A stretch of DNA of 64,000 nt from Shigella phage SP21535. The notes under the pieces are model-generated. The model ran no database searches. It was not told where the DNA came from and worked only from the letters and a program-made list of their open reading frames with translations. Every line of letters starts with the position of its first letter. The stretch's first letter is position 1. The stretch lies in sequence record PQ615101. One strand, given 5' to 3'. Below are positions 4,930 through 15,764 of the stretch, piece after piece. Made by a program: the position numbers and the translations under genes.

Positions 4930-5604
4930 TGAGTACAGTTTTTAATACTAAACAGGTTGATGTTTTAAAAGAACCTATGTTTTTTGGTTCAGGTCTTGGA
5001 ATTGCGCGTTATGATATTCAACGACATAGGGTATTTGAAGAACTTATTGAACGTCAGCTCTCGTTTTTCTGGCGTCCTGAAGAAGTAAACTTGATGATGG
5101 ATGCTACTCAATTTAATAAGCTTCCTCAGTATCAACAAAATATTTTTACTAATAATCTGAAGTATCAATCATTACTTGATAGTATTCAAGGTCGTGCGCC
5201 GTCTGCTGTACTTATGCCATTGCTTTCAGACCCAAGCCTTGATACATGGGTTGCTACATGGACTTTTAGTGAAACTATTCACAGTCGTTCATATACTCAT
5301 ATCATGCGAAATCTTTATACTGATCCGTCAAAGGTATTTGATGAGATTGTATTAGATGAAGCTATCATGAAACGTGCTGAATCCATTGGACGTTATTATG
5401 ATGACGTTCTGATTAAAACCCGTGAATGGGAAAATGCTAAAGAATTTGTAGAACTAGCTAAAGAATCTCCTGATGCCGACTTTCGTTTAAACCGGGCTAT
5501 TAAGCAAGAAGCCGAAGCTAAACGTGCTTTAATGAAATCTCTTTACCTCTGTTTGCACGTTATTAATGCCTTAGAAGCTATTCGTTTTTATGTATCTTTT
5601 GCGT
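4929..5604 (+). CDS. nrdB: Ribonucleotide reductase beta subunit, exon 1
   Basis: Translation ends ...ALEAIRFYVSFA, the conserved NrdB helix; the frame is interrupted by the intron after gcgT at 5604. Confidence 0.85.
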
Positions 5605-5904
5605 AAAATGCGCCTTTAAACGGTAACGTTTATCGAAAACTCCTTTAATTGCTGGAAAGTCCTTTATAGGAAAACTAGCAGCCAAGGTTTTGCTTGCACC
5701 TTTAATTAGTATAATATGATTATACTTTTAAGAGGATGCACAATTGCAAAGCAAGGTTCAACGACTAGTCTTCGGACGTAGGGTCAAGCGACTCGAAATG
5801 GGGAGAATCCCTCTGGGATTGTGATATAGTCTGGTCTGCATAGTAATATGTAGCAGTTCATAAGAGAACGGGTTGAGAATTAGCGAGCTCAATCGAACAT
5901 AACG
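5605..5904 (+). other. Group I intron in nrdB, ORF-less (about 300 nt)
   Basis: Joining 5604 to 5905 restores the conserved NrdB sequence (VSFA-C-TFNFHKNMEIMEGNAK). The intron ends in G, shares core motifs with the td intron, and has no ORF of 60 aa or more. Confidence 0.8.
5688..5716 (+). promoter_or_regulatory. Middle-promoter-like element inside the nrdB intron (MotA-box-like ttTGCTTgcA, then TATAAT)
   Basis: Motif match only. It is followed by ATG and a 21-codon mini-ORF, possibly a remnant of a lost intron ORF. Confidence 0.25.
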
Positions 5905-13815: not shown

Positions 13816-14064
13816 ATGATTAAACAATTACAACACGCTCTTGAACTGCAACGAAACGCATGGAATAATGGTCACGAAAACTATGGCGCATCTATTGATG
13901 TTGAAGCCGAAGCTCTTGAAATCCTGCGTTATTTCAAACATCTGAATCCTGCTCAAACTGCACTAGCTGCTGAGCTTCAGGAAAAAGATGAACTTAAATA
14001 TGCTAAGCCTTTGGCTTCTGCTGCGCGAAAAGCAGTTCGTCACTTTGTGGTAACACTGAAGTAA
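13816..14064 (+). CDS. rIII: rIII lysis-inhibition accessory protein
   Basis: 82 aa, MIKQLQHALELQRNAWNNGHENYGASIDVEAEALEILRYF... Confidence 0.9.
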   Translation: MIKQLQHALELQRNAWNNGHENYGASIDVEAEALEILRYFKHLNPAQTALAAELQEKDELKYAKPLASAARKAVRHFVVTLK

Positions 14065-14462
14065 TTTATTGGAGATTCACTGCCTTAGTGTGAGCTAAAA
14101 TCGAGGAGCCGTCGAACTGTCTGATTAATGATTTGCGAATCATTATAGTTTTAAGACCCCGGCAGTTTTACGGTGTACCTCTTGAATGTTATTCTTATAG
14201 CGGCAAGTGCATGCTACCCCGAGGTGATGGCCAATCGGGAGTACGCCTCAAGGCCTATATATCCATCAGCATATATCTTATCCTCGAGAAATCGAACCCG
14301 GAACCTTTAAGCTAACGGTGTGCAACAGATAAGAGCTATAAGGTATGATGACGGGTTTATGGTTATCCTGGTCGTTAAATATTCAAAAACCTATATTCCC
14401 CGTGAGGGCTTGCGCAGGCAATGCCAATAAGTCCTGCATTTTCATTTAAAAGAGAATTTATA

Positions 14463-14639
14463 ATGGCAAAACAAGCTAAAGCAAAGAAAGCAGTTGAAAA
14501 GAAAGTTGGTGATTCTAAACGCGCTGGTTACAAGCGTGTGTCGAACTCTCGTATCAATCAAACTGTTGAGAAGATCATGCGCCGAGCACGTGCGGTTCTT
14601 CGAGATGATGCTTCTCGTTTTGGTAAGCAGAAAGCATAA
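14463..14639 (+). CDS. Small lysine/arginine-rich protein (58 aa)
   Basis: MAKQAKAKKAVEKKVGDSKRAGYKRVSNSRINQTVEKIMRRARAVLRDDASRFGKQKA; preceded by an AT-rich RBS region and followed by a strong terminator. Confidence 0.5.
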   Translation: MAKQAKAKKAVEKKVGDSKRAGYKRVSNSRINQTVEKIMRRARAVLRDDASRFGKQKA

Positions 14640-14644
14640 GTTGA

Positions 14645-14675
14645 GGACTCCTTCGGGAGTCCTTTTTTATTTTCC
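14645..14675 (+). terminator. Rho-independent terminator (ggactccttcgggagtcc plus T-run)
   Basis: Perfect 7-bp stem with tetraloop followed by TTTTTTATTTT. Confidence 0.7.
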
Positions 14676-14692
14676 AAAGATTGCACAAAGTT

Positions 14693-14722
14693 GTTTACAG
14701 TATGGTTCCTTTGTGATAGTAT
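14693..14722 (+). promoter_or_regulatory. Early promoter-like element (GTTTACA -35, TAGTAT -10)
   Basis: Sigma70-like hexamers about 18 bp apart, directly downstream of the terminator. Confidence 0.4.
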
Positions 14723-14900
14723 TATCTTACACAAATGCATATTTTGAAGCAGCGATCCAAAACAAGGGCTTTCGTGATGCATTACAAGCCTCGAAAGGAA
14801 AAGTTTTGAAGCACAGCATGGCTAGTGGTCTAACAAAAGATGATACAATACTAACCGAAGCTGAATTTATTGATGTGTTAAACCTATTAAGAGACGCTCT

Positions 14901-15764
14901 ATGAAGCCTACTATTTTAACTGATATTGATGGAGTATGTTTAAGCTGGCAATCAGGCCTTCCTTATTTTGCTCAGAAATATAATCTTCCGTTGGAACATA
15001 TTTTAAAAATGATCCAAGATGAAAAATTTATTTCTCCTGGTAAACTTTTTAATTGTGATGAAGAACTTGGCGTCAAGTTAATTGAAAAATATAATCGTTC
15101 AGATTTTATTCGTTACTTGTCTCCATATAAAGATGCTCTGTGTGTAATTAACAAATTAAAAGAAGATTATAATTTTGTAGCTGTTACAGCATTGGGTGAT
15201 TCTATTGACGCTCTGTTGAATCGTCAATTTAATTTGAATGCTCTTTTTCCTGGTGCCTTCTCAGAAGTAATGATGTGCGGTCATGATTCTTCAAAAGAAG
15301 AGTTATTCAAAAAGGCAAAAGAGAAATATAACGTAATTTGTTATATTGACGATCTCGCTCACCACTGCGACCACGCGAGTGAAATATTAAATGTTCCTGT
15401 TTATTGGATGGCTCGAGGAGAACGTGACAATATTCCAAAAACTGCTCAGCGAGTTTATACATGGAATGATGTAGAAAATAAGCTTTTTTCACCAAAGGAA
15501 AATAAAGAAAGTTTTGATAGTGAAAAAGATATAAAAGATGTAATTGAGAAGATGGTTAAAAACGATTCTTTTCGTTGGAACACTACCTGGAGAACTCCTG
15601 GATTTAATCCGTATAATCCATATTATACACATCCATATAATCCATATTATACACACCCGTATCATATGAATCCATTCCATACGTGGAGTTATACCAAGCC
15701 TGGCGATGCAGGGTATTTTAATAAATTTACTAGTGGTGATAATATTTTCCAAGGAGCATTCTAA
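14901..15764 (+). CDS. HAD-superfamily phosphatase-like protein with a Pro/Tyr-rich repeat tail (T4 30.2-like)
   Basis: N-terminal ILTDIDGV (DxDG(V/T) HAD motif I) and a C-terminal NPYNPYYTHPYNPYYTHPYHMNPFH tail. Confidence 0.75.
   Translation: MKPTILTDIDGVCLSWQSGLPYFAQKYNLPLEHILKMIQDEKFISPGKLFNCDEELGVKLIEKYNRSDFIRYLSPYKDALCVINKLKEDYNFVAVTALGDSIDALLNRQFNLNALFPGAFSEVMMCGHDSSKEELFKKAKEKYNVICYIDDLAHHCDHASEILNVPVYWMARGERDNIPKTAQRVYTWNDVENKLFSPKENKESFDSEKDIKDVIEKMVKNDSFRWNTTWRTPGFNPYNPYYTHPYNPYYTHPYHMNPFHTWSYTKPGDAGYFNKFTSGDNIFQGAF
15612..15659 (+). repeat. 24-nt tandem duplication (2 copies) inside the HAD-like gene, encoding NPYYTHPY twice
   Basis: ataatccatattatacaca occurs twice with a 24-nt offset. 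Confidence 0.6.

Follow-up and report, generated by a model that had tools for sequence, protein, structure and literature searches.

A covarying four-way-junction RNA domain in the leader of gene 30.9 of a T4-like Shigella phage, upstream of a 1,792-bp deletion

RESULTS

The rIII-30.9 locus of Shigella phage SP21535

We examined a stretch of 64,000 nucleotides from Shigella phage SP21535 (sequence record PQ615101), hereafter called the window, whose coordinates are used throughout, and within it the region around the small gene 30.9. The window is Tequatrovirus (T4-like) DNA and its + strand corresponds to the minus strand of T4. Genes follow each other in the order cd, 31.2, 31.1, 31, rIII, a gap of 398 nt, 30.9, 30.2, 30.1, 30 (DNA ligase) and alt. 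The gap, which is the untranslated leader of 30.9, carries a 151-nt RNA domain organized around a four-way junction. This domain is well supported as a structure and apparently undescribed. Gene 30.9 is the last cistron of the (31)-rIII-30.9 unit: rIII, leader and 30.9 lie on one strand without intervening terminator, and a strong terminator and then an early promoter are found 3′ of 30.9. Downstream of this promoter, the sequence is interrupted by a deletion relative to T4. The features of the region are collected in Table 1.

Table 1. Features of the rIII-30.2 region of the window
Feature	Position	Strand	Details
rIII, lysis-inhibition accessory protein	13816-14064	+	82-aa open reading frame; phrog_1457, E = 4.7e-44; aligns with T4 rIII; upstream cistron in the same transcription unit as 30.9
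Untranslated rIII-30.9 leader	14065-14462	+	398 nt here and in fPS-2; 244 nt in T4
Long predicted 5′ hairpin (weak evidence)	14103-14181	+	14103-14121 pairs with 14161-14181; inner hairpin 14127-14144
Four-way-junction RNA domain	14193-14343	+	151 nt; RNAalifold and covariation
Helix P0	14193-14201/14335-14343	+
Helix P1	14202-14204/14253-14255	+
Helix P2	14213-14225/14230-14246	+
Helix P3	14256-14262/14269-14275	+
Helix P4	14276-14282/14328-14334	+
Helix P5	14284-14287/14292-14295	+	GAAA loop
Helix P6	14296-14300/14316-14321	+
Conserved hairpin module	14344-14392	+	stem 14350-14352/14371-14373 and 14354-14355/14367-14368; conserved loop UUUAUGGUUAUC
Two small hairpins before the 30.9 ribosome-binding site	14398-14437	+	CCCC-GUGA-GGG (14398-14408); GCAGG...CCUGC (14414-14437)
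Gene 30.9, 58-aa Lys/Arg-rich protein	14463-14639	+	ATG 14463, stop 14637-14639; sequence MAKQAKAKKAVEKKVGDSKRAGYKRV...
Intrinsic terminator of the rIII-30.9 unit	14643-14675	+	9-bp stem and UUCG loop (14643-14664), then UUUUUUAUUUU
T4-type early promoter	14694-14722	+	TTTACA (14694-14699), N17, TG-extended TAGTAT (14717-14722)
Deletion junction	14728-14735	+	single remaining copy of the 8-bp repeat TACACAAA
3′ remnant of gene 30.3, now the (predicted) transcribed leader of 30.2	14728-14904	+	translation equals T4 gp30.3 residues 95-152
Gene 30.2	14901-15764	+	phrog_420, E = 9.2e-89

A four-way-junction RNA domain supported by covariation

The leader contained no conserved open reading frame (ORF), and its GC content was 0.47 versus about 0.35 in the flanks. 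The T4 leader is 154 nt shorter and lacks window positions 14190-14344, which include the domain. A consensus structure with six helices was derived with RNAalifold from 19 distinct sequences. Helices P0, P1, P3 and P4 follow each other with no linker nucleotides. Between P1 and the long hairpin P2 lies an invariant internal loop, while P4 opens into a three-way junction with P5, capped by a GNRA loop, and P6.

A covariance model of the domain (R1) gave 40 matches at 112-175 bits, one per genome and all on the gene strand. Among 22 distinct sequences, 99.4% of cells were paired. Compensatory double changes were observed in 17 of the 39 pairs, compared to a mean of 3.8 after shuffling, and none of 500 shuffles reached 17. 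As a control, partners were slid by 1-3 columns, which left at most 3 compensatory pairs. P0 is a further stem, which closes the domain by joining its two ends; its first five pairs were kept in 29-33 of 33 distinct sequences, with use of AU, UA, GC, CG and GU pairs. The unpaired junction nucleotides, for their part, were invariant in all 22 distinct sequences examined. G-U pairs are frequent in the stems, indicating that the + strand is the folded one.

A coding role of the core of the domain found no support: in 21 of 22 distinct sequences every one of the six frames contained stop codons, and the window copy was closed throughout. The core differs by about 7% from that of Marfa, versus a proportion of synonymous differences (pS) of 0.32 for 30.9. 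This argues for selection on the RNA itself. In the phage studied here, P3 contains an A-C mismatch (14261/14270), position 14270 being a C; fPS-2 and other close relatives have a U and keep the pair.

No match within 14193-14343 was obtained with Rfam 15 (4,227 families) at gathering or at permissive thresholds (E up to 10), and Rfam searches of the Marfa and Cronus loci did not match the domain either. ARAGORN detected no tRNA or tmRNA. Host origin or mimicry of the core was looked for by blastn in 5,426 complete Escherichia coli genomes, without a match. When 185,579 bacterial and archaeal species genomes were scanned with a 17-base motif, 35 matches were returned, about the number expected by chance according to a rough estimate, and all 35 were rejected by the covariance model (14 bits or less). 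No description of the leader RNA was found in the literature by gene names, topic or sequence strings. The main text of a 2023 catalogue of viral structured RNAs (PMC10690425) does not include T4-like phages, and an uncharacterised listing in a catalogue of this kind is possible.

Distribution and repeated loss of the domain

The core was found in 406 phage records belonging to at least 10 genera, at a single place in nearly all of them; about 1,006 records carry 30.9. Every locus with the domain has it between rIII and 30.9, in the orientation of the genes. Domain identity is 90-99% across most of the genera that carry it, and the segment absent from T4 matches Marfavirus, Karamvirus, Roskildevirus and Klebsiella phages at 80-95% identity, far in excess of the identity of the neighbouring genes. 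Hosts of the carriers include Escherichia, Klebsiella, Enterobacter, Citrobacter, Serratia, Erwinia and Edwardsiella, and both therapeutic and environmental phages are represented.

The covariance model found no match in T4, STML-198, CBH8, PspYZU05, Virsaitis27 and VP8. When phages without the domain were searched for diverged copies with filters off, nothing scored above 9 bits. In T4 the domain is excised exactly, and ECO07P2 and STML-198 carry different deletions. The domain would thus appear to be an accessory element, strongly conserved where present and repeatedly lost, including in T4.

T2 and HX01 (loci L083 and L084) carry a segment of about 46 nt, TACTATCATGCGTCAGAAAAGTGTTATCTGTGTAAGTCTTGGTGG, at the site of window positions 14190-14344. 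It aligns weakly with both ends of the domain and, on this sequence likeness, looks like a decayed remnant of it.

A leader composed of structured modules

The leader is built of several structured modules, two of which, the four-way-junction domain and the hairpin with a conserved loop, are both backed by compensatory changes. The hairpin is flanked by UAUGAUG and CGUUAAAU, and its loop looks invariant and UUGUAGGUUAUC-like. This module was present in every leader-bearing lineage, including T4, T2 and HX01, with two covarying stem positions (AU 6, UA 5 and GC 1 for one; CG 9 and GC 3 for the other). In Marfa, PS2 and L010, it is located upstream of the 151-nt domain, i.e. in swapped order with respect to the window. 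Since the order of hairpin and domain differs in these phages, the leader can be regarded as modular.

The remaining elements are described more cautiously. The long 5′ hairpin was predicted by single-sequence minimum free energy folding only, and its inner part is missing in STML-198 and ECO07P2. The two small hairpins before the ribosome-binding site were read from the sequence: tetraloops GUGA, UUGA and UUCG occur among relatives, with few informative substitutions, and an alternative pairing (GGGCUUG/UAAGUCC) is predicted in the same region.

Gene 30.9 encodes a conserved small basic protein

The first-pass annotation of positions 14463-14900 had described a 58-aa highly basic protein standing in place of the T4 30.x gene string. 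The ORF is indeed present at the position and with the sequence then given. However, the protein is the first member of that string: it shares 57 of 58 residues with T4 gp30.9 (NP_049823), is of equal length and carries a sole change, G26V. A clear homology to a T4 30.x product was the outcome which, in that annotation, would speak against its proposal, and this is what the homology search returned. phrog_1427 matches residues 1-58 (E = 2.3e-30) and the top phmmer matches reach 1e-24. Judged by its sequence, the 58-aa ORF is therefore the orthologue of T4 gp30.9 (PHROG 1427), a protein already catalogued, with PHROG 1427 being labelled as of unknown function.

In the window, in T4 and in at least 10 other genera, gene 30.9 directly follows rIII (or gene 31) in the same orientation. 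Its homologues form 67 clusters at 90% identity and only 15 representative clusters at 50% identity among 1.84 billion proteins; all those with a named source come from T4-like phages. In an alignment of 29 sequences, 15 columns were invariant. The motif SKRAGYKRxSNxR is invariant and retained in the most distant homologues, and is followed by an Arg/Lys-rich helix. The ratio of nonsynonymous to synonymous substitution (dN/dS) was 0.04-0.68 in 11 pairwise comparisons with orthologues. In T4, the only phage covered by the RNA-seq and proteomics data in question, the 30.9 transcript is classed 'early' and the protein 'none' (PMC9697503, supplementary file 4). On account of the dN/dS values, the invariant columns and the early class of the T4 transcript, 30.9 is a genuine gene under purifying selection, confined to T4-like phages.

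The protein contains 11 Lys, 8 Arg and 5 acidic residues. An AlphaFold2 (AF2) model, computed with the 29-sequence alignment, shows a disordered, basic, Lys/Ala-rich N-terminal tail and one Arg-rich helix (residues 29-53), with predicted local distance difference test (pLDDT) values of 86-90 for the helix and a mean of 67.6. A Pfam scan gave nothing above threshold, the sub-threshold Post_transc_reg scoring 13.8 bits for a cut-off of 25. A profile search of the PDB found no relative (best: SlmA, E = 0.4), and an exhaustive profile search yielded further phage homologues only. It is quite possible, if somewhat short of probable, that gp30.9 acts by binding nucleic acid, presumably RNA, through its basic motif and helix, a proposal drawn from its composition only. 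The suggestion in the first-pass annotation that small basic proteins of this kind may bind nucleic acids or ribosomes is plausible for gp30.9.

Two annotations of this gene deserve comment. Many GenBank phage records and one UniRef entry call the 58-68-aa protein a '1,4-alpha-glucan (glycogen) branching enzyme, GH-13-type'. A domain of this type is absent from the Pfam results, and the label is evidently a propagated misannotation. Some records (e.g. fPS-2 g204c) use an upstream ATG, giving a 72-aa product (window 14421-14639). This start was also rejected, the extension being unconserved and located inside a leader hairpin, whereas all 29 aligned homologues begin with MAKQ or MAK.

More distant T4-like phages have a longer 30.9 homologue (80-92 aa) right after gene 31, without rIII or structured leader, as in a 235-kb viral contig (locus L091, 1447-1689) and in PspYZU05 (locus L025, 1456-1734). 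The protein thus predates the leader RNA.

A T4 terminator and early promoter follow 30.9

The terminator stem includes 5 G-C pairs, its U-run is U6AU4, and its fold energy is −15.4 kcal/mol (z = −3.15 with respect to shuffles). As in intrinsic (Rho-independent) terminators, a stable G+C-rich hairpin directly precedes the U-run. The promoter fits 11 of the 12 positions of the T4/PST PeSL consensus TTTACW-N17-TAYWAT (PMC4122927). By itself, a consensus scan performs at chance level in this AT-rich DNA: 15 promoter-like sites were found versus 12.0 ± 3.3 expected, and 2 terminator-like sites versus 1.9 expected. Both signals were accepted because they are conserved in T4 and in Yersinia phage fPS-2, and not on the basis of the scan. 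Apart from isolated single-base differences, ORF, terminator and promoter align with both phages throughout; the two signals differ by one or two bases at most, and the terminator is identical in T4 and fPS-2. In the record of fPS-2 the signals are annotated as a terminator and a 'predicted early promoter'. They are T4's own, and in T4 the same promoter drives 30.8 through 30.2. Transcription from the rIII-30.9 unit would end at the UUCG-capped terminator, and the early promoter would restart it thirty nt later.

A stem-loop (14643-14664) within tens of nucleotides of an early promoter (14694-14722) fits the PeSL (promoter-early stem-loop) cassettes of T4-type phages, in which a stem-loop stands directly before an early promoter (Arbiol et al. 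2010, PMC2839356; Comeau et al. 2014, PMC4122927). The likeness extends to the setting, a variable region bordering indels, and to the stem, AGGA...TCCT, which fits the T4/PST form AGNA-loop-TCNT.

A 1,792-bp deletion removes 30.8 to 30.4 and most of 30.3

From the 30.9 stop to the 30.2 start we counted 261 nt, versus 2,053 nt in T4. Homology with T4 and fPS-2 is unbroken through rIII, leader, 30.9, terminator and promoter up to position 14735, and resumes inside 30.3. The octamer TACACAAA occurs twice in T4, 6 nt downstream of the promoter −10 element and in codons 95-97 of 30.3, the two copies being 1,792 bp apart. Relative to T4, genes 30.8, 30.7, 30.6, 30.5 and 30.4 and codons 1-94 of 30.3 are deleted. 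The loss of 1,792 bp of T4 sequence exactly explains the short interval. It occurred by illegitimate recombination between the two 8-bp repeats, and nothing was inserted. Recombination between two PeSL copies, the difference from the cassettes mentioned above, was considered as a cause and rejected: the right junction lies inside 30.3, at the 8-bp microhomology. The junction was not found in one aligned piece in any of 50,697 phage records.

The first-pass annotation fared well on the signals and on the interval. Its strong terminator and its sigma70-like promoter both lie within 2 nt of where it put them, the latter being a conserved T4-type early promoter, and the interval is much shorter than that of T4, as it had stated. 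The roughly 180 nt of leader it described before a 'HAD-like gene' (30.2) also exist, between the promoter and the 30.2 ATG at 14901 (14723-14900), but they are a 3′ remnant of 30.3 rather than a designed leader. The structured RNA just 5′ of the ORF did not figure in it. Its overall proposal, that the T4 30.x string gave way to a new small basic protein equipped with a terminator and promoter of its own, can practically be set aside. The absence of 30.8-30.3 and the short interval would agree with it, yet the protein is gp30.9 itself, the terminator and promoter are those of T4, and the gap is a simple deletion between 8-bp repeats with no insertion.

The Pfam family Phage_30_3 matches the remnant at its C-terminal positions 110-138 of 138. 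The early promoter would now read directly into this 58-codon remnant and then into 30.2. Several arrangements around the junction were also noted. As a result of the deletion, an AUG at 14735 stands roughly 6 nt from where the early promoter is inferred to start transcription, a nearly leaderless arrangement; this AUG opens a 24-codon ORF in the frame of the embedded T4 gene 30.3′ (window 14735-14809). A TTG at 14806, preceded by AGGA, could start a 32-aa remnant of 30.3 overlapping the 30.2 start (ATGA). Gene 30.2 gives, besides phrog_420, a weak polynucleotide-kinase/phosphatase match, and is syntenic with T4 30.2.

A separate deletion was observed in Escherichia phage RPN226 (locus L047, 2252-2512), where the N-terminus of gp30.8 is fused in frame to the C-terminus of gp30.3; the fusion is annotated as an 86-aa hypothetical protein. 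Since this deletion is different and independent, the 30.8-30.3 stretch is dispensable and prone to deletion.

Elsewhere in the window, two group I intron matches scored above the Rfam gathering score, at 1-164 (50.7 bits; cut off by the window start) and 5588-5853 (69.1 bits). Both are presumably introns like those in T4 nucleotide-metabolism genes.

DISCUSSION

We are confident, taking these points jointly, that the small gene is 30.9, that terminator and promoter are those of T4, that 1,792 bp were deleted, that 30.9 is a genuine gene and that its leader is structured and modular. The closest known system is T4 30.9 itself, an 'uncharacterized protein in Gp30-rIII intergenic region', with which the locus shares the protein, its position after rIII, the terminator and the downstream early promoter. 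It differs from the T4 locus by the G26V change and in two further respects: the T4 leader is 154 nt shorter for want of the RNA domain, and 30.8-30.3 are intact in T4 but deleted here. The ORF, terminator and promoter that first attracted attention are thus already known in T4, stand beside a strain-specific deletion and are ordinary when taken alone. The deletion shows again that 30.8-30.3 is dispensable. The main interest lies in the leader RNA, a complex fold backed by covariation and absent from T4, T2 and many laboratory relatives.

As to what the domain does, we tentatively favour, with less than even confidence, a role in cis, in which a protein or a small ligand would dock on the domain and so set the translation or stability of the rIII-30.9 transcript. 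Like riboswitches and ribosomal-protein leaders, it is an aptamer-like multi-helix fold in a 5′ leader, with covarying stems and invariant junctions, on the sense strand and upstream of a small basic gene. In contrast to them, it has no Rfam match and no evident expression platform, and the downstream gene is unchanged where the domain is missing. Several observations weigh against a simple riboswitch. gp30.9 is essentially identical in T4, which lacks the domain, and therefore the protein does not need it. The domain stands 109-184 nt from the 30.9 start codon and, in several genera, begins only 10-26 nt past the end of rIII, which it might serve just as well; excision from the transcript is equally conceivable. 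The leader itself yielded no intrinsic terminator. A hairpin that could cover the 30.9 ribosome-binding site (−2.4 to −3.1 kcal/mol) is weak and no better than shuffles, so that a simple expression platform of riboswitch type is not evident. As for the structure, single-sequence folding energy is not significant (z = −1.5 for the leader and −1.1 for the core), and the structural case rests on covariation.

Alternatively, the domain may be cut from the rIII-30.9 transcript as a stable non-coding RNA acting in trans, unrelated to 30.9, for instance by sequestering a host protein or a defence factor as a decoy or sponge. Self-containment within its own stem P0 is in line with this, as are the unchanged gp30.9 of phages without the domain, the variable order of domain and other modules between genera and the combination of strong conservation with repeated loss, a pattern typical of accessory functions in host interaction. 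We nevertheless hold it unlikely: the domain always occupies one syntenic site on the mRNA strand, and no dedicated promoter or terminator was found beside it, the AT-rich −10-like strings just upstream of the core being inconsistent across genera and such that transcription would initiate inside P1. Rather unlikely, too, is an element of mRNA processing or stability that uncouples or protects the rIII and 30.9 halves, whether as a self-cleaving ribozyme, as an entry site for a nuclease or by blocking exonucleases. T4 early mRNAs are heavily processed (PMC3014915), the domain lies between two cistrons and frequently begins 10-26 nt past the rIII stop, and its invariant unpaired junction nucleotides, in 22 distinct sequences, are reminiscent of catalytic or tertiary-folded RNAs; yet no known Rfam ribozyme class matched (E up to 10), and about 150 nt with invariant junctions is more than a simple stabiliser would need.

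A further proposal, compatible with the others, concerns the leader more than the domain: gp30.9 may repress its own translation by binding the leader, in the manner of ribosomal proteins, the likeliest site being the hairpin at 14350-14373. In favour are the small size, strong basicity and Arg-rich helix of the protein, and the fact that the invariant-loop hairpin accompanies 30.9 in every leader-bearing lineage, T4 included. However, L091 and PspYZU05 have a 30.9 homologue right after gene 31 and no leader, and we regard autoregulation as fairly improbable. That the 151-bp segment is instead an element at the DNA level, a miniature inverted-repeat transposable element or a protein-binding site, is very improbable. 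It is bounded here by a perfect inverted repeat of 8-9 bp (14193-14201/14335-14343) and is precisely present or absent among close relatives, but the terminal repeat varies between lineages while staying complementary, and five internal helices covary and contain G-U pairs, which the other strand would show as A-C mismatches. Moreover, each genome has a single copy, always at the same syntenic site, and no target-site duplication was seen, whereas miniature inverted-repeat transposable elements are recognized by dispersed copies, conserved repeats and such duplications.

Structured RNAs, with regulatory or unknown functions, are known from T4-type phages: RNA C and RNA D of T4 and the manA and wcaG motifs of cyanophages (PMC3014915, PMC2864571). 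Unlike the leader domain, RNA C and RNA D lie in the T4 tRNA cluster (PMC3014915). manA and wcaG are Rfam families and neither matched the domain, which T4 lacks and which occurs only in enterobacterial Tevenvirinae and close relatives. According to a 2010 review, T4 had yielded no functionally characterised riboswitch or trans-acting regulatory RNA (PMC3014915). Whether it acts in cis or otherwise, the domain is a concrete candidate for RNA-based regulation or host interaction in T4-like phages, for which natural 'knock-out' alleles exist.

T4 is the most intensively studied lytic phage. The domain may represent a new functional class of phage RNA, a regulator sensing a ligand or protein or else a trans-acting decoy, which would have been missed because T4 has deleted it, although we consider this somewhat unlikely. 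If true, no RNA of this sort would have been characterised in the T-even group before it, and the likewise uncharacterised basic protein gp30.9 might work together with it.

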